A stretch of 37,968 nt of DNA from IMG/VR virus record IMGVR_UViG_3300045988_169084; one strand, written 5' to 3'. Source of the stretch: a virus. This document shows positions 7,313 through 37,968 of the stretch, piece after piece (positions within the stretch are counted from its first letter, which is position 1; each line of letters opens with the position of its first letter). The notes under the pieces are model-generated. The model did no database searches. It saw only the letters and a list, made by a program, of their open reading frames with translations, and was not told the origin of the DNA. The position numbers and the translations under genes are program-made.

Positions 7313-10300
7313 TTATTTGGTCTGCCAGCCGTTATCTTTGAGCTTCTTGTTAACTCGCCTAAGTTCCCGGGAAAGCCTTCTGTATTCTACGCTACGTTCA
7401 CCATAGGTACTCTTGGCCTCACGCTTCTCTTTACGCAATCTACGTGCGCTTTGCAATAGTTTTTCTCTGGTGTCGTAGAAGGGGTTGAGGTCAGACCTCG
7501 TAGTCTTGGCCGCATTGTGCGCTTGGAGAGTGGCATTGGACAAGGAGCTGATGACTTCAAACACACGTCCCACAGTTTTCGCATTGGCGATATTAGCTCC
7601 AAGGCCAATCGTATCTCCCAGCGTCCGGCTAAGACCTGCCCCAACTTCAATCCATTCGTTTAGAGTCACGGCGTCCATGTCTTCCGTACTCTTCAATATG
7701 ACTTCGTAAGCTTGGGAAAGACCTCGTGCGGTTCTGCTAAAGTCCGTTAGCGTGTTAGGACGGGAGAAGACGTGGCCGCCTCCAAACGCATAGTAATCCA
7801 GCGCTTGGAACAAACCTGCGAATACAGGGGTGGCGACAAGCGGGCCAAGAGACATGTTGAAGAGAATCGTTTCTGCCGAGAATTCATCATCGTTATAGCT
7901 CGTGAAGAAGGAAGCCGCCATGCCCGAAATGGTATTAGCAAAGCCAACGATAGTCCACATGCGGATGAAGTTGGCAAGCTTCCTCATGGAGCTAATGTCG
8001 CCACGCTTGAACTGGCTGAAAAGAAGAGCTGACTTGTTCAGCATGTCGCTCATGAACAAGACTTGGTAAGATTCGTAAGCTGATCCTCCAAGTGTGCCAA
8101 TAGCGCGAGTAGATTGATTCTCAGGCTGGGCCGACTTTAGAATGTTAAGATTCAACTGGTCTATAATCTGCTCTTTCTTCAAGCCCCTATCATGCAGGAT
8201 TTGCGCGGCCATCATGTTGCCACGCTTTACGCACCACAGGTCAAAGTCAATCAATGCCGAGTTGCCGCACTCCTGCCAGTACATGACCTGAGCCTGCTTC
8301 TCCTTTGGGGCGTCCATAGCGGCTTTGATTACCGCCCTATCCTGATACGACAATGTGTCGCGAGCCTTCACGCCGTCCAGCTGGGACATCTCTTGGAGAG
8401 AAATAGGCTGAGGGTTGAATAGCCAGCTACCCATGCTCTTTATAATCTCAAGACTGCTAAAGTCCGATCCTACCAACGGATTGAAGAACGCCGCACCGCT
8501 CCGGCAAATGGAAGCCATAGAGTTAAAAATCTTCGTGCGGGCAAGAGTTCCAATCGCTTTGACGAAAAGCTCTCCGAATAATCCCTGCTGTGCACGGATG
8601 CGTCCTTCATTCAGGAAATTATAAAGGCCCTTGCTTGCCTGCTGGTAGTTCTCCTTGCCGATGACAAGCTGTATTTGTGCGGCCGTCTTCGTATTCAGCC
8701 AAACTTTGTTGAAGTACTCATTCAATTCAAGGGAAGACATCCAGCCTTCCGCTATCTGAGCGTACCTTTCAAACTCCTGAACCGGATTTACCAGCATAGT
8801 TATTTCCGCAGAAGCCGGGGTGCTTCTCTTCTTCATGAAGGCGGGCTTGCCGGAATAAGTTATCTGCCCGGGAGTGTACCCTTGAGAATCATAGAACCCG
8901 TCCCCTAATTGCCCCTCATGGGCCGTGGTGCGTGGAGTATAGAAGTCTTCCATCGTAGAGACCTGACCGAAGAAAGACTCTTCGATGCTGGCCACCCTCT
9001 GGCCTAGTTCACGATACGCCGTCTGAATGGAGCGTGCCAAGAACAACCCGTCCGGACCAAGCGCATTAATAAGCGCCTCCTGATCTTTAGCGAGCCTATC
9101 CTGAAACGCTTCTTCTGCATTATCCACTTCTGCCTCATACTCATCTTGAGTTATCTCCTTATTGGAGAGCTGTTCGTCTAATTGGGATATGCGGCGCTCC
9201 AGAAGAGCATAGTTCCCAAGATCAAGCTTGTAGTTGTTACGCAAGACTTTCACGCCATCAGACTCTTGCATGGTCTGATAAATCTTAATAAGCTGAGTCT
9301 TAACGTATTCTTCGCCCTTGAACTTAACAGGGGCGTTATTCATCTGGTAGAAATGGCGCGCGATTTGAGTTGTCGAATCAGTGTTCTTGATCCCTGCCAG
9401 TTTTGCCGCACCCTTAAGCCATGAAGAGATCATCGCATGCCGCTTCACTCGGGCATTGTCTCTCTGCATGGTTGCCCTCACTACCTCATTCAGCATGAAG
9501 TCACCGTTCCTTTTAAAGCCGGGCAGTGTTCCGAGGATTTCGGATAACTGAACGGTGGAAAGCATTCCTGTAAAGAAACTCTTTAACGAATTGTATTCTC
9601 CAGCTTCCTTGAGAAGATTTCTCAGATCATCCAGTTTCTTCTCTGTACCTACGGCCTTAGCTACTTCATCCTTAAACAGGTTAAGCTTCTGTTCGCGTCT
9701 CTCCAGCTCCTTCCTCCAGCGGAGGCGTCCCTCATCTTGAAGTTGCTTCAATGCGTCAAAAGCATTCTCCTGCTCTGCCAAGCTACGGACGAAGCTGTTC
9801 CCATCTTTGTAGAGAACAGAACCGAATGTATCAAGCAAGGAAATAGATTGCTGAATTTCTATTACTTGAGGGTCATTCGGGTTTTGAGTCTTGTTAATAG
9901 TCCTCTCAAGGAGGGCCTGCAATGCGTCTTGCTGGGCCTCTACCTTCTCTGGAGACATCTTCATCAGCTCCTCAACGGCAAGCGTGTTATAACGGCTCTG
10001 TGCGTCCAGCGTGGAGCTTACGCCCTTCCTATCTTTATAGGCTCTCTTTGCCAGCCGCTCCAGCCCCTCGGTAGTCTTGACTTGTTGGGCCGCCTCAGCA
10101 CGGAGCGCCGCCGCTTCTTCCTTGGAAGATTCTTTCAAGACCCTATCAACAATCTTCCTAACCTCACGTTGCGTACGGTTGAATTCGGCAGTTTGTATCT
10201 GGTTGTTGATAGCTTTAACTCCACGGTCTAGCGCCGTTTGAAGGGCATTCTCAAATTGTAGTTGGCTCTTCGGGTTAGCTAGTGTTTCAGCTAATGACCT

Positions 10301-13300
10301 TGGTATAAATGATTTACCATAACGGCTAATAGCATTCTCAAGAGTAAGGACGCTGTTAAACAATGCCTTCTGCTGGCGCGCCTGAGAGAACTTCCCAGCT
10401 ACTGCTTGCTCGGCAAGGCCCATGAAAGACTTGCGTATTGCCTTGAGACTGTTAATGGCCTGAGAAGAATTGCTCTCAAAGATATCTGCGATTGCCTTTT
10501 CAACGGTCTGGATTCCCGGACCTACACGCAAAGCGCTTGTTCTCTCCTGAACGGAAGGAAGGATCGCCGCCCCTGCCGCCTCATTAATCATGGACGCGAT
10601 GTCTCTGGCCTGCGTCTGGTCTGCCACATTAGCTAGAGACTGGGACCATTTAACAAAGTCTGCATCAAGAACTCCATCCTCAATGGCCTGCTTGATGCGC
10701 TGGCCTTCCTTAAAGATGTTCCCAACTTCTGCAATATTGTCCTTCTGCCATTCAAGGATGCTCTGCACATCCCCGGGAAGAGTACCGAACAGTTCCGGGT
10801 TAGTGGCAAGCGCTTTCCCCATAGTGGCTAAGGCTTCTTGCAAGATAACATCATCAGACAAGTTCCCAAAATCCCGGCCAGTGTACTCTCCATACTTGCG
10901 AATGGCGTTCTCAATATACTCCCGGGTGACTGCCCCCGTGGCAAGATCATACGTCGCATTGGCATGGATGACTTCTTCCAGAATGTCTAGTGGATTGGCT
11001 CTCCCTTCGATGACCGCTATTTGCCCAGCACGATACGCCGAAACAACCTCCAAATTATTAGCAACGTCCTCAACGGTAATTTCACCTGCATTGTATTGTT
11101 CTCGAAGTTCAGGGTTAGATTGAATGTAGGCTAGCGCCCTAGCCCTTGCCGTGGACTGGTTGATTCCTTCCGCATTCTGGATTGAGGAAAGAAGCTCGTC
11201 TTTGCTTATCTCAATGCCTTGACTCTCAATGGCAGGTTCAAGCTGTCTCTGAGCAAATAGATTCAGGGCTTGCACAAAAGAAGGATTGGACGCCAGCGTC
11301 TCGGAAAGATAAGTCCCAGCTACTTCGTCGGTGAGCGTCATGGTAGATTGCTGGCCGCTTTCAGGAGACGTCGTGGTGACGTCCCAAGTACCATCCCCGT
11401 TATCCTTGAACGTGGGCATCAATTCCACATTCTTGAAAAGGTCGGCATTCTTCGCGACGAAATTCAGCATCGCGGCTGAACTGCTACCTACTGTTTCTGG
11501 CGACTGGTTTACATTGGTAGTATTAAAGAGCGCCTCCTGAATTAGGTTGGAGCGCTCCTTGCCGTCAGGCATAGTAGCAATCTGGTGGGCTACATCACTT
11601 TCAATGCCTAGGGCTATAAGAGCTTGAGGGCTTCTGCCTACCTTGTTAACCAAATGATTGGCTTGTACACCACCGAGCGCGCCCATAGAACCGCCAAGAA
11701 CAACAGTAGGAATAAAGAATGCAGGGTCCAAAGGATTGTAATTCTCCCACCAGCCCCTAAGGGTATTCTGTTGAGTTAAATCTGCACCTAGGCTCCGGTA
11801 AAGATTTTCAACTCCAACATATACTGGGTCAGCAATGCTTTCTTGTACGGTTTCCGTTAAAGCACCTGCCGCCCCAGCACGACCTATACGTGCCAATGTC
11901 GATCTTTCTGCTATAGCTTCAACTCCTCTTATCGCAGTAGAACCAAGTCCAGTAGCTCGTACGCCTTTAACTGCTAGACCACCAGTAGACATTGTGAGAG
12001 AATCAAGAGCGCCTTCTAGTGAGCCTACCGTTAATCCATACGCGATTGCCCCTTCTCTACTAGAGTTTGATTTATAAGCATCGAGTCCGGCACTCGAGCC
12101 ATAGACCAATGACCCCATAGCTGTTGCTACGCTGTAAGTTGCAACTGGGTTCCTTGTTGCAATTCCTGTAGCTAAAGAAGACAAGCTGACGGCGGCAATT
12201 TTAGGAACATTATCAACTAAGTTCCTGACCCCCATACCCCAATTGCTCTCAGGCATGTCTCGCATGGAGCGATATTCTTTCTGGATAGCTAGAGCAAGAC
12301 GTTGAAATTTTTCTTCATCTTCGTCTTTCTCAGGAAGCATTCTTAAGAATGACCATATATCTTCATAGGTGTCGTTCAATGCTTGGACCAGCCATACTCT
12401 ATCGTCTTTGGGCAGGAATTCAGGAAGCATCTGAATAGCAATCTTGAACGAACCCGTATTCTCCCCAAGAGCTAGCAACCTGTCAGCCATCTTATCCCAA
12501 TCAAGGGAACCTTCTTTTATATACTCATCCTTAATCCATGAAGTAGCTTCATATGCCGCTTGATATTGCGTCCGCAAATAAGGGGAATTGTTGAAAATGG
12601 AGCGTCCATAAACTGAGTTAGGACCGAGAGAGTCAATGGCTTTCTCAAAGTCTCCTCCATTTTCCAAGAAGGCCGGAAGGAAATCTGCCTCTGCCTTGTA
12701 ATATCCTTCCTTTACTTCATTTGCCCTCTTTAAATCTTGAGAGTACTTATTAATGACGCCATTGATGCTGTCCGTCTTATATTCCCTCATGAGAATAGCG
12801 GCGGCCATCTCATCAGAAATACTCATGTTAGGGAACTTCACTTCCTTGATAGCTCCAAAAAGCTCTCTCTCTTTTGTAGCTTGGTCAGCGCTATTCCAAG
12901 ATGCTATCTGGTCAGCATTCAAAAGTTTCCCTAACTTATTATCGACAACTTCATCTGTATCAATATAAACGTAAAGTCCTTTTTCCGGTTGTATGTTTTG
13001 AGTTAATGCGGAAAAGATAGCGTTGGTCCTCTCTACCTTCTCTCTCCTTAGCTCAAATGTAGGGTCAATCCCTCTCTTCTTCAAGGAATCATTAAGCCGA
13101 AGGATTTCATCCATCATCGAGCTATCGAGAACATTGCTTTGCCTAAACTCCCGTTGAAGCTTTTTATAGGATTCCAAATCTTCGAGAGTTTCCCTACGCA
13201 AAGCATTTGCCCGACTCCCTAAGTAGTTAGCTCTTTCAGTTTCGCTAAGTTCTGCGTATCCCACTCCCTGCGCCCTGCGCTGTTCACGGGCGATAGCTTC

Positions 13301-13402
13301 TTGGTCGCCAGATATTCCAAGCGAAGGAATAACTGATTCATCCAAAGGAGGAGGAGTCACTCCTTCGTCATCAGGCAATACGGGTTCGATAGGCTCGTCC
13401 AT
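7313..13402 (-). CDS. giant internal virion / ejection protein (2029 aa; T7 gp16-position analogue)
   Basis: Single uninterrupted ORF, Ala/Gln/Glu-rich and helical. It is the last of three consecutive internal-protein genes before the tail fiber. Confidence 0.5.
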   Translation of the reverse strand: MDEPIEPVLPDDEGVTPPPLDESVIPSLGISGDQEAIAREQRRAQGVGYAELSETERANYLGSRANALRRETLEDLESYKKLQREFRQSNVLDSSMMDEILRLNDSLKKRGIDPTFELRREKVERTNAIFSALTQNIQPEKGLYVYIDTDEVVDNKLGKLLNADQIASWNSADQATKERELFGAIKEVKFPNMSISDEMAAAILMREYKTDSINGVINKYSQDLKRANEVKEGYYKAEADFLPAFLENGGDFEKAIDSLGPNSVYGRSIFNNSPYLRTQYQAAYEATSWIKDEYIKEGSLDWDKMADRLLALGENTGSFKIAIQMLPEFLPKDDRVWLVQALNDTYEDIWSFLRMLPEKDEDEEKFQRLALAIQKEYRSMRDMPESNWGMGVRNLVDNVPKIAAVSLSSLATGIATRNPVATYSVATAMGSLVYGSSAGLDAYKSNSSREGAIAYGLTVGSLEGALDSLTMSTGGLAVKGVRATGLGSTAIRGVEAIAERSTLARIGRAGAAGALTETVQESIADPVYVGVENLYRSLGADLTQQNTLRGWWENYNPLDPAFFIPTVVLGGSMGALGGVQANHLVNKVGRSPQALIALGIESDVAHQIATMPDGKERSNLIQEALFNTTNVNQSPETVGSSSAAMLNFVAKNADLFKNVELMPTFKDNGDGTWDVTTTSPESGQQSTMTLTDEVAGTYLSETLASNPSFVQALNLFAQRQLEPAIESQGIEISKDELLSSIQNAEGINQSTARARALAYIQSNPELREQYNAGEITVEDVANNLEVVSAYRAGQIAVIEGRANPLDILEEVIHANATYDLATGAVTREYIENAIRKYGEYTGRDFGNLSDDVILQEALATMGKALATNPELFGTLPGDVQSILEWQKDNIAEVGNIFKEGQRIKQAIEDGVLDADFVKWSQSLANVADQTQARDIASMINEAAGAAILPSVQERTSALRVGPGIQTVEKAIADIFESNSSQAINSLKAIRKSFMGLAEQAVAGKFSQARQQKALFNSVLTLENAISRYGKSFIPRSLAETLANPKSQLQFENALQTALDRGVKAINNQIQTAEFNRTQREVRKIVDRVLKESSKEEAAALRAEAAQQVKTTEGLERLAKRAYKDRKGVSSTLDAQSRYNTLAVEELMKMSPEKVEAQQDALQALLERTINKTQNPNDPQVIEIQQSISLLDTFGSVLYKDGNSFVRSLAEQENAFDALKQLQDEGRLRWRKELERREQKLNLFKDEVAKAVGTEKKLDDLRNLLKEAGEYNSLKSFFTGMLSTVQLSEILGTLPGFKRNGDFMLNEVVRATMQRDNARVKRHAMISSWLKGAAKLAGIKNTDSTTQIARHFYQMNNAPVKFKGEEYVKTQLIKIYQTMQESDGVKVLRNNYKLDLGNYALLERRISQLDEQLSNKEITQDEYEAEVDNAEEAFQDRLAKDQEALINALGPDGLFLARSIQTAYRELGQRVASIEESFFGQVSTMEDFYTPRTTAHEGQLGDGFYDSQGYTPGQITYSGKPAFMKKRSTPASAEITMLVNPVQEFERYAQIAEGWMSSLELNEYFNKVWLNTKTAAQIQLVIGKENYQQASKGLYNFLNEGRIRAQQGLFGELFVKAIGTLARTKIFNSMASICRSGAAFFNPLVGSDFSSLEIIKSMGSWLFNPQPISLQEMSQLDGVKARDTLSYQDRAVIKAAMDAPKEKQAQVMYWQECGNSALIDFDLWCVKRGNMMAAQILHDRGLKKEQIIDQLNLNILKSAQPENQSTRAIGTLGGSAYESYQVLFMSDMLNKSALLFSQFKRGDISSMRKLANFIRMWTIVGFANTISGMAASFFTSYNDDEFSAETILFNMSLGPLVATPVFAGLFQALDYYAFGGGHVFSRPNTLTDFSRTARGLSQAYEVILKSTEDMDAVTLNEWIEVGAGLSRTLGDTIGLGANIANAKTVGRVFEVISSLSNATLQAHNAAKTTRSDLNPFYDTREKLLQSARRLRKEKREAKSTYGERSVEYRRLSRELRRVNKKLKDNGWQTK

Positions 13403-30810: not shown

Positions 30811-31457
30811 ACGTCATAATAAATTTTCTGCTTGCAATGCCACCGATTTTGCTTGACACTGATTGGCGTTCGGATGAACACGCAGTCTTACTTGAGGTGG
30901 GAGGGGTCTGGAGTCCCCCGAACTGGTTCCGGTCGAGGCTTGAGAGCTAATGAGAGGCAGTCTAGGGGAAATGAGAAGAAGAGTAAAGAAGAAAAAAAAT
31001 CAGTATTATCTTTCCGGAGTTTGGATTTGCTAGAAGAGGTTGGCGAAATTAAATGGGAATAGGGAATAGCGAGAGGAATTAGGAATAATACCGATTTTTG
31101 GTGGAGGGTGTAGAGAGTAAGAGAGGCGTGGAAGTAGAGGAGAGGGAGAGGACGAAGAATTGGAGGAGAGTAGTGGTAAGAGAGGTTGTGAGAGGGCAGA
31201 AAAGGGAGGAGTATGGTTTGGAGAGGAATCTTGGGAATGACCTGCATGCCAGTAGGTTATTTTGGGATTTTGGAGTGTGAAAGATGAGGGCTGTTGATTG
31301 GATTTGATGAATTGTTAGTTGGCTTGGAGGAGTTGAGGCGGCGCCCTTAGTTAAGGGTTTGATAAATGGGATGTTTGGTTGGTTTGATGAGGGGAAATTG
31401 GATGAAACGGCGCCATGTTTGATTTTGGAGTTGACGGCTTAGGGAAAAACGTTATAG
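30811..31457 (+). other. ~650-bp non-coding, cytosine-depleted, purine-rich block with short repeats (GGAATA x3; GTTTGAT x4-5; GA-rich tract 31090-31240)
   Basis: No ORF above 76 codons on the plus strand despite the position between plus-strand genes. Composition is near C-free, and repeats are visible by eye. Confidence 0.5.
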
Positions 31458-31981: not shown

Positions 31982-32944
31982 ATGGATAAAAAAAGAACGA
32001 TGCAAAGAAGAAATAATAATAATAAAGTAACTTATAGGGTTTTTGTCCTTATAAAATATGAAGATAAGTTGGAAGACTTTTATAAAGAAGAGGCGCTTGC
32101 TAGTTATCCTGATGTTCGTGCATTAGAGGATATGATTAACCGGGTAAAAGAACATGCTATCGATGCTAAGAAAAGAGGTCTTGGCCTAGAGTTCCACATT
32201 AGCGAGGAATATGGTCAGGCGTTTAGAGATATTAAGTTTTCTAAGAACTATTCTGCTGATGAATTGTCGTTGTTGGACCTTGAAAAAGAGTTTGATATTG
32301 ATTCGTATGTTTTTATGCATGATATTATTCAAGCTAGTGGCCGGAGTCGTGGGATTTTTTATCCTGCATATTCAGATTCGCTTAAGGCCGCTGAGGAATA
32401 TATTGAGACATCAGGAATGGACAGCAAGCTTTTCATCACCATATCCTATAATTGCGACGCCCTAAAAAGAATGGAGTTTATCGTTGGTTCTTTTAAATAC
32501 ACTTTCAAAGATAGTAATGTAGTTGATTTGAGCAAGTCCGAAGAAAGCCGTGAGAAGGCTCCAGAAGGCCCTAGCGACGCTTTGGAGGACTTTGGTACCA
32601 AGGAAGACTTGGAAACGCTTCTGGAGGTGATGAGAGGCCTTCGAGACGATGTTAACGGAGAGCTGAATGATTCTTGCGTAGCTGGGGTCCGTTTGGTGAG
32701 TGTGAGAGCAGTGGATGCTCCGGGAGCGGCCAACTATTTTCGGCGGGCTAGGAAGGACATTGATGAGAGGACAGGATTGGTGAGATTGTCGGAGATAGAG
32801 ACTAATGAGCTTTTCGATAAGGAAATAGGAGTTGTTGTTCCCTATCTGTCTTTGAGGGCTTATCTAAAGACCGGAGAAAAGGGGCTGTTCGCGCGTCAAA
32901 TGGAAAAGGCCCAGCGCGAAGTGATGAAGGACTTCGAGAAATAA
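31982..32944 (+). CDS. hypothetical protein (320 aa); replication-associated by position only
   Basis: Large ORF upstream of the recombinase, within the replication-like module. Confidence 0.45.
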   Translation: MDKKRTMQRRNNNNKVTYRVFVLIKYEDKLEDFYKEEALASYPDVRALEDMINRVKEHAIDAKKRGLGLEFHISEEYGQAFRDIKFSKNYSADELSLLDLEKEFDIDSYVFMHDIIQASGRSRGIFYPAYSDSLKAAEEYIETSGMDSKLFITISYNCDALKRMEFIVGSFKYTFKDSNVVDLSKSEESREKAPEGPSDALEDFGTKEDLETLLEVMRGLRDDVNGELNDSCVAGVRLVSVRAVDAPGAANYFRRARKDIDERTGLVRLSEIETNELFDKEIGVVVPYLSLRAYLKTGEKGLFARQMEKAQREVMKDFEK

Positions 32945-33002
32945 TTTCTGGCGGATAGCATATAGGCAAAAAAAATCCCCGTTTATATGTGTAAGCCGTC
33001 CT

Positions 33003-33041
33003 TATCATCATCTATACAAGTAGAGTATAATGCTGCCTCGT
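33003..33041 (+). promoter_or_regulatory. sigma70-like promoter candidate for the recombinase gene (TTATCA - 18 nt - TATAAT)
   Basis: Perfect TATAAT at 33036-33041, about 50 nt upstream of ATG 33090. Confidence 0.35.
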
Positions 33042-33089
33042 TATATTTATATTATGATGCAAATATGTAACATCAAATAATTTCTAAAT

Positions 33090-33707
33090 ATGATTTACGG
33101 GTACATTAGGGTAAGTAGTGACAAGCAAACAGTGGAGAACCAACGCTTTGAAATAAATAATTTCTGCGAGCGAGAGAAAATTAAAATTGATGGTTGGATT
33201 GAGGAAACCATCAGTGGTACTAAGGCATACAATAAACGCCAGTTGGGAAAACTGCTCAGACAAGTACAGAAAGATGACCTTATCATTTGTGCCGAGCTTT
33301 CACGTCTTGGGCGAAATCTCTTTATGATTATGGAGATACTGAATATATGCATGACCAGAGAGTGCCGTGTGTGGACAATCAAAGATAATTATCGTCTTGG
33401 TGATGATATTCAAAGCAAAGTGTTGGCTTTTGCCTTTGGCCTATCTGCGGAGATAGAACGCAATCTTATTAGCCAGCGAACTAAAGAAGCCTTGGCAAGA
33501 AAGAAAGCCGAGGGTGTTGTTCTTGGCCGACCGAAAGGGAAAAAGAATGCTCCTAATAAATATAAGCTTTCTGGCAAAGAAACACTAATAAAGGAGTTGA
33601 TAGCAATTGGTGTATCAAAGCGCAAAATTGCGAAAACATGTAAGGTCGACCGCAATACGCTTGCACGCTTTATCAAAGAAAATTTGGAGCGCTTAATTAC
33701 CGCATAA
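33090..33707 (+). CDS. small serine recombinase (resolvase/invertase family, 205 aa)
   Basis: N-terminal 'MIYGYIRVSSDKQ' with the catalytic Ser in the canonical context, 'LSRLGR', and a C-terminal HTH-like region. Too short for a large serine integrase. Confidence 0.8.
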   Translation: MIYGYIRVSSDKQTVENQRFEINNFCEREKIKIDGWIEETISGTKAYNKRQLGKLLRQVQKDDLIICAELSRLGRNLFMIMEILNICMTRECRVWTIKDNYRLGDDIQSKVLAFAFGLSAEIERNLISQRTKEALARKKAEGVVLGRPKGKKNAPNKYKLSGKETLIKELIAIGVSKRKIAKTCKVDRNTLARFIKENLERLITA

Positions 33708-33770
33708 TAAATCCCCCCCGGCAGTTTGTGGTTTTTCTGCCGGGGGGATTTATTATGCGGTAATTAAGCG
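33690..33770. terminator. bidirectional terminator: ~34-bp near-perfect inverted repeat around a 13-nt loop (inner GC stem ccccccggcag/ctgccgggggg), shared by two convergent genes
   Basis: Read directly. The arms extend into both coding regions, so both proteins end in ...RLITA. Confidence 0.6.
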
Positions 33771-34388
33771 GTCCATTGATTCTGCAATGGATTTTATTAG
33801 GAGTGATGTTTCGGGGAATGTGGTTGAAATTGCTATGGTTCTTTGCCCGTTGTCATTTCTTTCTGATAATAGATGTGAAAGATTTGAAATGTTGATATCG
33901 TGCAAATTAACGTTTTGTAGGTTATCAATTACAAGGGCTTTTGCTTTGAATGCTCTTCTCAGAATTGGTGATTTATTCCGGCTGTGAAAGTCAGTTGCTT
34001 CTTTCAACAGGTCAAAGGCTTTAATATAGAAAATGGAATCCCCTTTCTTGTATCTTTGTGCAAGCCATGCGCATGCTGATAGAGTCTTGGGCTTGTTAGG
34101 CCCGCAAATGAGAATGGACTCTTCTTTCATCTCTTTCCTAATGCGTGAATAGAGATCGGGCATGGTTTTGACGGTCATTTCTTTGAGCAGGTTAAAATGC
34201 TTGAGAGGAATCTTGGCAAGCTGGAGATCAGCTAAAAAGATTTCTCGTTCCTTCTCCTGCTGGAATTTCCTTTCTTGCTCGATGTATTCCGGGCTAAGGT
34301 GATCTACAACGGGAATTCCTAGGGGTATGTTATTAAAATCAAACCCTAGTTCTTCGAGGATGTCGGAAGCTTTCTTTGGTTCGGACAT
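33753..34388 (-). CDS. DnaC/IstB-like AAA+ helicase-loader homologue with a degenerate Walker A (GPNKPKT)
   Basis: 'ILICGPNKPKTLSACAWLAQ' (P-loop position), 'ALVIDNL' (Walker B-like), 'IAISTTF' (sensor-like), and C-terminal 'DRLI' as in DnaC 'DRLxH'. Confidence 0.45.
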   Translation of the reverse strand: MSEPKKASDILEELGFDFNNIPLGIPVVDHLSPEYIEQERKFQQEKEREIFLADLQLAKIPLKHFNLLKEMTVKTMPDLYSRIRKEMKEESILICGPNKPKTLSACAWLAQRYKKGDSIFYIKAFDLLKEATDFHSRNKSPILRRAFKAKALVIDNLQNVNLHDINISNLSHLLSERNDNGQRTIAISTTFPETSLLIKSIAESMDRLITA

Positions 34389-36012: not shown

Positions 36013-36441
36013 ATGAAATACGACCCTGACAGAAGATATAAAAGAGGAGACCTAGTTAGAATCACAGGATACCGAGGGCGACTATTCGGTTGTGGAAATA
36101 AGCGGGAAATAAATGATAAGTATAAATTAGGAGTAGAAGTAGTTCTCGAAGAAGGTGAAGATTACAGTGGAGATGTTGTTATTCCTGAAGGTATTCTCAA
36201 AGGAAATAAAATTTTGTTGTCTTGTGCTTGTATAGAACTTGTCGAACCAGTTGAAGAAATAAGAAAAAAATATACTTATAATGTCTTTGATGAAGGAATA
36301 TGTTTTCAAATACGGGAAAATAAGTCCGTTGTTTATGAAATATATTGGAAAACAGGTGTTTATCCAGGATCGCCTTACAGTAAGGAAGAAGCACTAAATA
36401 AGGCGAATGAGATTTGCGATGAACTAAACAATAAGAGATAA
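36013..36441 (+). CDS. hypothetical protein (142 aa)
   Basis: ORF with normal composition in an AT-rich accessory region. Confidence 0.5.
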   Translation: MKYDPDRRYKRGDLVRITGYRGRLFGCGNKREINDKYKLGVEVVLEEGEDYSGDVVIPEGILKGNKILLSCACIELVEPVEEIRKKYTYNVFDEGICFQIRENKSVVYEIYWKTGVYPGSPYSKEEALNKANEICDELNNKR

Positions 36442-36442
36442 A

Positions 36443-36844
36443 ATGAACTATAAGAAGATGAAAAATATTGAATGCCCGTTGTGCGGAGGAGTGCCCCAGT
36501 TTGCTACAAAACAAATAGATGAAATAGAAGTGTGCCAAATACTGTGCGAATGCGGATTGGGGACAGAAGTCAATGAGTACTGGCTGAATCCCAAGGATGA
36601 CCCCGAAGAAGATGAACTTCGCGCATGGAAGGACTGGGAAAAGCTTGTCTCCAAGTTCCCACCTATCATGCGGGTGCAGGAAGGAGACTTGATTGCTGTC
36701 CATACTGGGAATGCAATCAAGATTCAAAAAATTAAAGCTATTAATAAAGAAAACTTCCTTCTTCAAACGAGTATCGGAATTGTATATATTGATGCTGTGT
36801 TGAAATGGCCGTGGGAACTTGAGCAGAAAGGAGAACAACAGTGA
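36443..36844 (+). CDS. zinc-ribbon protein (133 aa; CPLCGG ... CQILCECG)
   Basis: Two Cys pairs at the N-terminus. Start abuts the previous stop. Confidence 0.5.
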   Translation: MNYKKMKNIECPLCGGVPQFATKQIDEIEVCQILCECGLGTEVNEYWLNPKDDPEEDELRAWKDWEKLVSKFPPIMRVQEGDLIAVHTGNAIKIQKIKAINKENFLLQTSIGIVYIDAVLKWPWELEQKGEQQ

Positions 36845-36981
36845 TGTATAATATTCTTCAACTTGTAATCCTCTTGGCCAACGTTTGTTGCATTGGCTAC
36901 TTTCTGTATCAGGCAGGGAAATTAAAAGGATTGAGTATGGCGACTTCTGCCGCTCTAAATCACAAGATGGATAAAAAATAA
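36844..36981 (+). CDS. possible small hydrophobic peptide (45 aa), TGATG-coupled
   Basis: My own translation gives MYNILQLVILLANVCCIGYFLYQAGKLKGLSMATSAALNHKMDKK. Weak evidence. Confidence 0.25.
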   Translation: MYNILQLVILLANVCCIGYFLYQAGKLKGLSMATSAALNHKMDKK

Positions 36982-37117
36982 CGGAATTATGTAGAATAAT
37001 CTTGTTGGAATATTGCATTGCTGCTAACGCTGATATTCGGTAATAAATTGGCGGGAGAGGCAGCCAAAACGACTGATACAAGACTAAAGTAAATAGTTCC
37101 GATAGACTTTATATAAA

Positions 37118-37957
37118 ATGGCTAAGAATAAACTTGTAGTTCCTTTTTTGAAATGGGTTGGAGGAAAAAGACAACTTATTCCAGAAATTAGAAAGATGTT
37201 ACCCAAAGGGGTAGCGAATCGTCCCTACTATGAGCCATTCATCGGAGGCGGAGCTTTATTTTTTGAACTCCAGCCAAAACAAGCAGTTATAAATGATTAT
37301 AACGAAGAGTTGATCAATGTTTATACGGTTATAAGGGACAACCACAATGAACTTATTGAGGATTTAAAGAAACATAAAAATACGTCAGAGTATTTTTATG
37401 AAATTCGCTCTATGGATAGGCAACCTCTTTTTAAAAATCTTACCACTATCGAGCGAGCATCACGAATTATATATCTCAATAAAACTTGCTATAATGGATT
37501 ATATCGGGTTAATAATGCCGGGGAATTTAATTCTCCATTTGGAAAATATAAAAATCCAAATATTGTCAATGAGCCTGTGATTAAGGAGGTAAGTAAATAT
37601 TTAAATTCTGGTCGGATTCAAATATCAAATGGTGATTATGAGGTAATTTTGAGAGATATACCAACAAACTCATTTGTGTATTTAGATCCTCCGTATCATC
37701 CTATTTCAGAGAGTTCTAATTTTACAGGATACGTGCAGGGTGGATGGAGTGAGAGGGATCAGCTTAGGCTAAGAGATGTTTGTAATAGATTAAATAGCAA
37801 TGGCATAAAATTTCTCCTATCAAATTCTGCATCTAATTTCATAAAAGAAATTTATGCGGAATACAATATTCATGTAGTACAGGCAAGTCGTGCTATAAAT
37901 TCAGATTCTTCTAAAAGAGGGCAAGTTGATGAATTTTTAATTAGCAATTATGAGTAA
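37118..37957 (+). CDS. dam: DNA adenine methyltransferase (Dam-like, N6-adenine MTase, DPPY motif)
   Basis: N-terminal 'FLKWVGGKRQLIPEI' (AdoMet-binding motif I region) and 'FVYLDPPYHP' (motif IV, DPPY). About 33% GC, orphan (no adjacent restriction enzyme). Confidence 0.85.
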   Translation: MAKNKLVVPFLKWVGGKRQLIPEIRKMLPKGVANRPYYEPFIGGGALFFELQPKQAVINDYNEELINVYTVIRDNHNELIEDLKKHKNTSEYFYEIRSMDRQPLFKNLTTIERASRIIYLNKTCYNGLYRVNNAGEFNSPFGKYKNPNIVNEPVIKEVSKYLNSGRIQISNGDYEVILRDIPTNSFVYLDPPYHPISESSNFTGYVQGGWSERDQLRLRDVCNRLNSNGIKFLLSNSASNFIKEIYAEYNIHVVQASRAINSDSSKRGQVDEFLISNYE

Positions 37958-37968
37958 ATCCAAAAATG
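37850..37968. repeat. 119-bp copy of window positions 1..119 (wrap-around)
   Basis: Exact identity read directly. Confidence 0.9.

Follow-up and report, generated by a model that had tools for sequence, protein, structure and literature searches.

Between a 320-aa gene and a convergent DnaC/IstB-like gene of an uncultured gut podovirus lies a single ORF for a small serine recombinase, preceded by 110 bp that also occur in bacterial contigs and followed by an extended palindrome (Table 1). The DNA analysed, here called the window, is the whole 37,968-nt stretch of IMG/VR record IMGVR_UViG_3300045988_169084. Positions 1-119 and 37850-37968 are exact copies of each other, which marks the window as a complete circular genome of about 37.85 kb; the G+C content is 45%. 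The window encodes a large terminase, a podovirus (T7)-type head-tail connector, major head, tail-tube and tail proteins and an endolysin, along with an exonuclease, a RuvC-like resolvase, the DnaC/IstB-like protein and a Dam-like methyltransferase. No cultured phage gave a nucleotide match to the window in megablast searches, and the portal protein shares only ~25% identity with those of the nearest cultured podoviruses; Rfam and tRNA scans of the window returned no matches. The original prediction placed the recombinase in a virulent-looking phage, and the circular complete contig with its connector, head, tail-tube, terminase and endolysin genes is consistent with this. PHROG scans of 40 window ORFs likewise uphold its statement that no integrase is present, the one exception being a weak serine-integrase-family match of the recombinase ORF itself.

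Three IMG/VR contigs represent sibling phages, being 87-99% identical over about 25-37 kb and 0.1-3 kb of the window. Some regions away from the recombinase gene also deserve mention. Positions 30890-31450 form a ~560-nt purine-rich, cytosine-poor stretch with a GC skew of up to +0.64, without a convincing ORF or Rfam match; the siblings conserve it at ~87%, and an origin or a non-coding RNA may reside here. Positions 36069-37968 plus 1-110 hold a module of two small ORFs and the Dam-like methyltransferase (37118-37957), which is swapped for a different ~1.8-kb segment in the siblings L088 and L090 and retained in L089; this is a second mosaic, variable locus. In the tail region, a 2029-aa ORF on the minus strand (7313-13402) has no PHROG match at all.

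The recombinase ORF runs from ATG to stop over 205 codons, its sequence starting MIYGYIRVSSDKQ. Pfam places a Resolvase N-terminal domain at residues 2-143 (E=5e-34) and, weakly, an HTH_38 domain at residues 167-198, while PHROG matches it as 'DNA invertase' (E=2.6e-47). Over residues 1-200 of its 205 it aligns to the NCBIfam model NF009949 (master DNA invertase Mpi family) with 346.5 bits, the curated cutoff being 272 bits. The best match among solved structures is the Gin invertase, with the nucleophile S9 aligned to S9 of Gin; in an alignment of 292 homologs the residues S9, K49, R50, S71, R72 and R75 are invariant or nearly so, and all are kept in the phage protein. Conservation of the catalytic domain is extreme: in comparison with copies borne on mobile elements, synonymous sites are saturated at a dN of ~0.05. 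By its whole-protein score, catalytic residues and C-terminal HTH the predicted product is an Mpi-family serine DNA invertase. The earlier identification of a real ORF for a serine recombinase of ~200 aa from the resolvase/invertase class, rather than an integrase, thus agrees with the Pfam, PHROG and NCBIfam matches; where it had named resolvases and invertases together, the NF009949 score above the cutoff bears out the invertase side. The phage protein thus scores above the cutoff of the equivalog model of Mpi from Bacteroides fragilis, and it has the small serine-recombinase architecture and hyperconserved catalytic domain of that enzyme; the targets of B. fragilis Mpi itself are 13 distant promoter invertons (Coyne et al. 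2003 PNAS, as cited in PMC4747536 and PMC10403206).

Table 1. Features at and around the invertase gene (window coordinates; a dot marks a feature without strand).
Feature	Position	Strand	Basis or detail
Native phage gene, 320 aa, no family match, upstream of the insertion site	31982-32944	+	
Left foot of the original terminator, GGCAAAAAAAATCCC, orphaned on the upstream side of the insertion	32966-32979	+	Sibling comparison
Captured bacterial segment, 710 bp: upstream region and invertase codons 1-200	32980-33689	+	Donor matches, absence in siblings
Upstream region of host origin, 110 bp, presumably the promoter/5'UTR of the invertase gene in the host	32980-33089	+	(Nearly) identical in donor contigs
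Mpi-family serine DNA invertase ORF	33090-33707	+	ATG to stop
Extended palindrome and bidirectional terminator hairpin	33685-33775	.	Left arm 33685-33724, loop 33725-33736, right arm 33737-33775
Inverted duplicate of phage sequence (3' end of DnaC/IstB-like gene and terminator foot)	33690-33716	+	27 nt, exact
Native phage DnaC/IstB-like gene, 211 aa, ending DRLITA before the stop	33753-34388	-	Pfam IstB_IS21, E=2.4e-7

The insertion site and its junctions

Window positions 32981-33701 are missing from all three sibling phages. Their empty site reads ...GGCAAAAAAAATCCCCCCGGCAG-TTTGTGGTTTTT-CTGCCGGGGGGATTTATTATGCGG..., a clean bidirectional terminator that separates the 320-aa gene from the DnaC/IstB-like gene converging on it, in which the left foot that is orphaned in the window leads directly into CCCGGCAG...CTGCCGGGGGG. 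The DnaC/IstB-like gene itself is 96-99% identical in these mpi-less siblings, and in the parts covered by the retrieved sibling loci the window is collinear with them, without any inverted segment. The insertion site is the left foot of the terminator hairpin between the two convergent phage genes; with its precise boundaries and its absence in the siblings, the invertase cassette reads as an accessory passenger and not as a native phage function.

The source of the inserted DNA was sought by a metagenome scan with a 27-nt pattern from the region upstream of the gene, which returned nine contigs. All nine match the window only over 32980-33689, at 97.8-99.7% identity (in the best cases two differences in 710 nt), carry non-phage sequence on both sides of the match, and none of them is the phage. 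In a further contig (L099) the donor region is present in a more diverged form, with 91% identity to the cassette; at its positions 100-200, upstream of the invertase region, we observed three direct repeats of GAAAAGTGTAGCA-like units.

Alignment to donors and siblings resolves both junctions. At the left, phage sequence ...AAAATCCC passes into host sequence CGTTTATATG..., with ~1 nt shared; at the right, host sequence ...AATTTGGAG is followed by CGCTTAATTACCGCATAATAAATCCCC... and then by the terminator stem. The host part and the phage copy join at TTTGGAG/CGCTT (33689/33690) with a TGGA microhomology, while the donors instead continue with GAACAAAACTGAGCG after TTTGGAG. The 27 nt that follow the join are the exact reverse complement of 33745-33771 on the far side of the hairpin. 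In the capture, the last 3 codons of the gene, its stop codon and the cognate crossover site were lost; residues 1-200 of the phage invertase are host-derived, and the last five (RLITA) and the stop come from the inverted phage copy, so that the two convergent proteins, invertase and DnaC/IstB-like, both end in RLITA.

The inverted copy also makes the hairpin much longer than in the mpi-less siblings, which have only the short native terminator stem. The palindrome has arms of 34-40 nt that are 97% complementary around a loop of 12 nt, and its RNA fold is predicted at -71.7 kcal/mol (z = -12). A terminator consensus scan missed this hairpin owing to the 12-nt loop, but folding detects it clearly. 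For the origin of the structure we infer a two-step template-switch capture by illegitimate, microhomology-mediated recombination (1-4 nt at the junctions), in which a nascent strand would first have copied the opposite strand and would then have switched back at the hairpin stem. As to direction, we conclude on a transfer from host to phage, because the host copy is complete with site and substrate, the phage copy is truncated, and the empty site in the siblings is intact.

The mpi-carrying phage was found only as the window (an ENA contig, 100%) and as a 3.7-kb Logan contig (100%), two assemblies that may stem from the same sample. The source sample is ENA ERZ28660323 / SAMEA3664564 (run ERR1136767). 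The insertion event is recent, with two differences in 710 nt, and rare.

The bacterial donor locus

In the donor contigs the invertase gene is full-length (203 aa, ending ENLEEQN before the stop) and is directly followed by a 19-bp site, TGAGCGATTTCGTRCAGCAG, whose inverted partner stands ~2.1 kb downstream. Between the two sites are ORFs with spare TaqI_C specificity domains, and beyond them, in convergent orientation, a 1120-aa protein with Eco57I, N6_Mtase, MmeI_Mtase and TaqI_C domains, which by this domain content is an MmeI-like type IIG restriction-modification enzyme. Blocks of ~314 nt adjoin the left site in one donor contig and, inverted, the right site in another, with 99.4% identity; in the comparison of L184 (4448-6612) with L189 (6321-8485), the ~314-nt end blocks are exchanged inverted and a central 795-nt block stays direct. 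Because the donor contigs differ by such exchanged inverted blocks, the locus evidently rearranges in natural populations, and judged by its sequence it behaves as a multi-segment shufflon. Donor loci with the 99.7%-identical gene occur in alternative arrangements, an indirect sign of DNA inversion activity.

The same layout extends well beyond the donor. Of 78 genome loci from many Bacteroidales genera that encode 83-92% identical proteins, 58 carry the motif GAGCnnTTTnGTnCnGCAA no more than ~25 nt from the invertase stop codon, and in 14 of the 18 motif-bearing loci with at least 5.9 kb of downstream flank an inverted partner follows 0.75-3.5 kb away. Many genome and MAG contigs (among L101-L180) stop no more than 150 nt past the site behind the invertase stop codon, as would fit assemblies that break where DNA is invertible. 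Integrative mobilizable elements show the same arrangement of invertase and site beside MmeI-like methyltransferases and SNF2/PLD helicase-nucleases. These elements, with genes 90-93% identical, were considered as the donor and rejected: their synonymous sites are saturated, and the metagenome scan produced closer donors.

Unlike B. fragilis Mpi, then, the closest relatives of the phage protein adjoin, and apparently serve, one local gene-altering restriction-enzyme shufflon. Milman et al. 2023 found the Mpi family enriched at gene-altering inversions and described inversions in type II RM and DISARM-like systems (PMC9881135). This is the class to which the donor belongs, its invertase gene abutting inverted repeats that swap the TaqI_C specificity domains of an MmeI-like methyltransferase/restriction enzyme; by comparison, the phage copy has been moved, is short by three codons, and is parted from both its sites and the restriction enzyme.

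On their other flank the donor contigs carry ordinary housekeeping genes of a chromosome, namely a response-regulator/AraC regulator, transporters and a tricorn-like S41 protease. This protease shares 99% identity with the representative of a cluster of 4110 members; among the 40 cluster sequences read, the only named one is from Parabacteroides merdae, and the closest named relatives after it (Parabacteroides sp. and Bacteroides) reach 83-85% identity. These flanking genes point to a Bacteroidales chromosome as the donor, probably that of Parabacteroides merdae. The G+C content of P. merdae is ~45%, and the 45% of the phage is compatible with this species as host. Host inference from identity of the invertase itself was set aside as uninformative, given 83-92% identical copies in Muribaculaceae, Prevotella, Bacteroides, Rikenella, Porphyromonas and others.

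Possible activity of the gene and alternative explanations

Compared with all eight of the eight full-length donor copies, the phage protein carries D48N, I183T and the swapped tail (EEQN to RLITA). Both substitutions are non-synonymous and both lie at variable positions of the family: of the 292 homologs, 135 have N and 80 have D at position 48, and the residue at position 183 varies among I, L, K, R, A and V. Within the DNA-binding region (residues 143-200), I183T is the only difference from the donors. The phage invertase is thus probably competent and equipped with the DNA-binding domain of the donor, although the altered C-terminal tail might affect folding or DNA binding. The host-derived upstream region contains, at 33042-33049, a near-consensus Bacteroidetes -7 box, TATATTTA (7/8 match in a pattern search), which leads us to regard the co-captured 110 bp as a putative promoter; 3' of the gene stands the strong hairpin. 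Since the invariant catalytic residues and the host DNA-binding domain are kept, the enzyme, if transcribed, should recombine host shufflon sites in trans. Transcription from the co-captured region during infection would supply invertase that binds these sites, and its action in trans would raise the rate at which the host restriction enzyme switches specificity. If the gene is expressed, the shufflon sites of the host are the only plausible substrates.

We therefore favour, with reasonable though far from full confidence, the reading that the cassette is a recent host capture, an orphan and accessory Mpi-family invertase that, if expressed, would most plausibly act in trans on the restriction-specificity shufflon of the host. 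A possible gain for the phage would be progeny methylated for both specificities. This leaves the matter of selection aside: so recent an insertion has hardly been exposed to selection, and the data agree just as well with a neutral accident as with a selected function.

The strongest competing explanation is that the cassette is a functionless passenger, a recent accident of illegitimate recombination that is unexpressed or inactive in the phage and will be lost. Its 99.7% identity to the host gene, its presence in the phage of one sample and absence from three sibling genomes, the lack of a cognate site in the phage and the fact that both phage-specific substitutions are non-synonymous, in a family with a dN/dS otherwise of 0.02-0.05, are what such a passenger would look like. 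However, the reading frame is unbroken across the fusion, the invariant residues are kept and both substitutions are at variable positions; the gene brought its upstream region with it, a strong terminator follows it, and Mpi-family invertases recur in unrelated bona fide phages (B124-14 and IMG/VR contigs), which suggests that their carriage is tolerated or favoured. We thus believe this explanation to be improbable on balance, but one to be taken seriously.

That the gene serves a native recombination function of the phage, either as a multimer resolvase in a plasmid-like lifestyle or as a Gin/Cin-type invertase of a phage segment, is very improbable, even though it has the small serine recombinase fold with ~31% identity to Gin/Hin/Pin-type invertases and sits among replication and recombination genes. 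Both roles had been proposed in the original prediction. Multimer resolution and a phage-plasmid lifestyle are at odds with a gene that is part of a 710-bp host insertion missing in three otherwise collinear siblings, and the PHROG scans of the window found no partition or plasmid-maintenance gene. No res site, transposase or terminal repeats were found beside the gene, its upstream 110 bp being host DNA common to the donors. The TGTA...TACA candidates at 32998-33026 and 33066-33105, earlier pointed out as possible sites, have arms of 4-7 nt without statistical support; they fall within the host-derived DNA and are also present in the bacterial donor copies.

A DNA switch within the phage fares no better, the cognate site having been lost at capture. 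With up to 4 mismatches allowed, the motif GAGCnnTTTnGTnCnGCAA has 0 matches in the phage genome; the 7 matches with 5 mismatches and the 30 with 6 are what chance gives (4.3 and 26.5 expected from shuffles). For 20-mers of the cassette, the best inverted partner elsewhere in the genome matches at 16/20, and shuffles give 16-17/20; no inverted-repeat pair in the phage stands above chance except for the terminator palindrome, whose arms are 12 nt apart. The sequence ARACGTWCGT, which we take to be the target consensus of B. fragilis Mpi, has 0 exact matches in the window and 5 with one mismatch, where 4.3 are expected. Gin (Mu), Cin (P1), Pin (e14) and Hin belong to the same small serine invertase superfamily, and enzymes of the Gin/Cin/Pin type flip an adjacent phage segment with alternative tail-fibre genes between 26-bp sites. 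This phage has no such segment or site pair: no inverted-repeat pair of a Gin/Cin/Pin/Hin-like invertible tail-fibre or flagellin-promoter segment was found, and the tail genes are 15-25 kb away. With the site absent, no inverted partner and no segment inverted relative to the siblings, a phage-internal switch or resolution system is not supported.

Tn3 and gamma-delta resolvases have the fold of the catalytic domain in common with the phage protein (E about 1e-7 to solved structures), but the phage cassette is without res site, transposase or transposon ends, and its boundaries are microhomology junctions. The original prediction had named a transposon remnant as the outcome that would overturn it; the gene is no such remnant, but it is just as little a native phage function, being a fragment of a host restriction switch and not a transposon resolvase next to transposon ends.

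We also considered the palindrome arm GAGCGCTTAATTACCGCA as a diverged crossover site at which the enzyme might have catalysed its own integration. This was rejected: 6 mismatches to the site are what chance provides (30 observed, 26.5 expected), the arm is an inverted native phage copy, and the donor alignment puts the junction upstream of the start of the site. Finally, an assembly chimera, with bacterial reads misjoined into a phage contig, might come to mind for a metagenome assembly with an insert almost identical to bacterial DNA of that habitat, but it is scarcely credible here, as phage sequence flanks the internal insert on either side, only 1-4 nt are common to the two parents at the junctions (far under any assembler k-mer), the right junction has a novel 27-nt inverted duplication present in neither parent, and the ENA and Logan assemblies, two different ones, have identical junctions.

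Phage-borne Mpi-family invertases and host phase variation

The preferred reading of a recently captured accessory invertase makes the feature a new sequence in a known family and in a known type of context, that of phage accessory cargo. Phage morons are single genes with their own promoter and terminator, variably present between phage genes. The cassette is moron-like in being a single gene with upstream region and terminator between two phage genes, variable among close relatives; it differs from morons in its cargo, the switch enzyme of a host anti-phage system. Our full-text searches of the literature found no description of such cargo, nor of a phage-encoded Mpi-family invertase or its function; what they found concerns Mpi, phage-driven shifts in B. 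fragilis inversion states, and phase-variable restriction systems.

Mpi-family proteins are nonetheless encoded by 212 IMG/VR stretches, and terminase, portal and head genes lie nearby in a sample of 12 of these loci. No neighbours are shared between the window and other mpi-carrying viral contigs. The 'DNA invertase' ORF65 of the cultured, lytic Bacteroides phage B124-14 is 71% identical to the protein studied here overall and ~87% in the catalytic domain, and is likewise an accessory gene, but its subfamily is another one (217 aa) whose C-terminal DNA-binding domain is unrelated, and it was acquired by another route. Its module of 1.67 kb (L001 1381-3051), which includes a 'putative nuclease' and a MutS-like fragment, is missing from 22 related B. 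fragilis phages, Barc2635 among them; its flanks carry a ~70-nt duplicated 3' end of the antirepressor gene, the sign of the other route. Because the B124-14 type shares the catalytic domain and has an unrelated C-terminal domain, the Mpi family contains subfamilies with different targets.

In other phage contigs, invertases of the B124-14 type (217 aa) often lie directly upstream of DNA methyltransferase genes (L045, L057 and L077 10686-11573). In L041, a 52-nt inverted repeat (8150-8201 and 10422-10473) that encodes the NPPY methyltransferase motif starts 10 nt past the invertase, making this locus a candidate for a phage-borne invertible methyltransferase.

Phase-variable capsules and restriction systems are a main means by which gut Bacteroidales and their phages coexist. 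The published work that we found treats the switching enzymes as tools of the host; here, a phage carries a near-unaltered copy from a defence locus. One might speculate that the phage uses the stolen invertase for counter-defence or host manipulation, over-expressing it in infected cells and so forcing the phase-variable type IIG enzyme to switch specificity, although we regard this as clearly unlikely. If it were true, progeny methylated for both specificities could spread through both phase variants of the host, or, as an alternative outcome, the host chromosome would become a target of its own enzyme; the recurrent orphan Mpi-family invertases in unrelated Bacteroidales phages would then amount to a general hijack of host phase variation. 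On this speculative view, phages would carry these invertases to manipulate host phase variation, in this case of a restriction system.

The capture of the Mpi-family gene is informative in other respects as well. The annotation 'Mpi family' spans at least two subfamilies with different DNA-binding domains and targets. Through the 99.7% match, an uncultured podovirus that has no cultured relative can be assigned to a host, Parabacteroides, and probably P. merdae. Even if the insertion is neutral, it is an unusually clean case, resolved to the base, of the capture of a host gene at a terminator hairpin.
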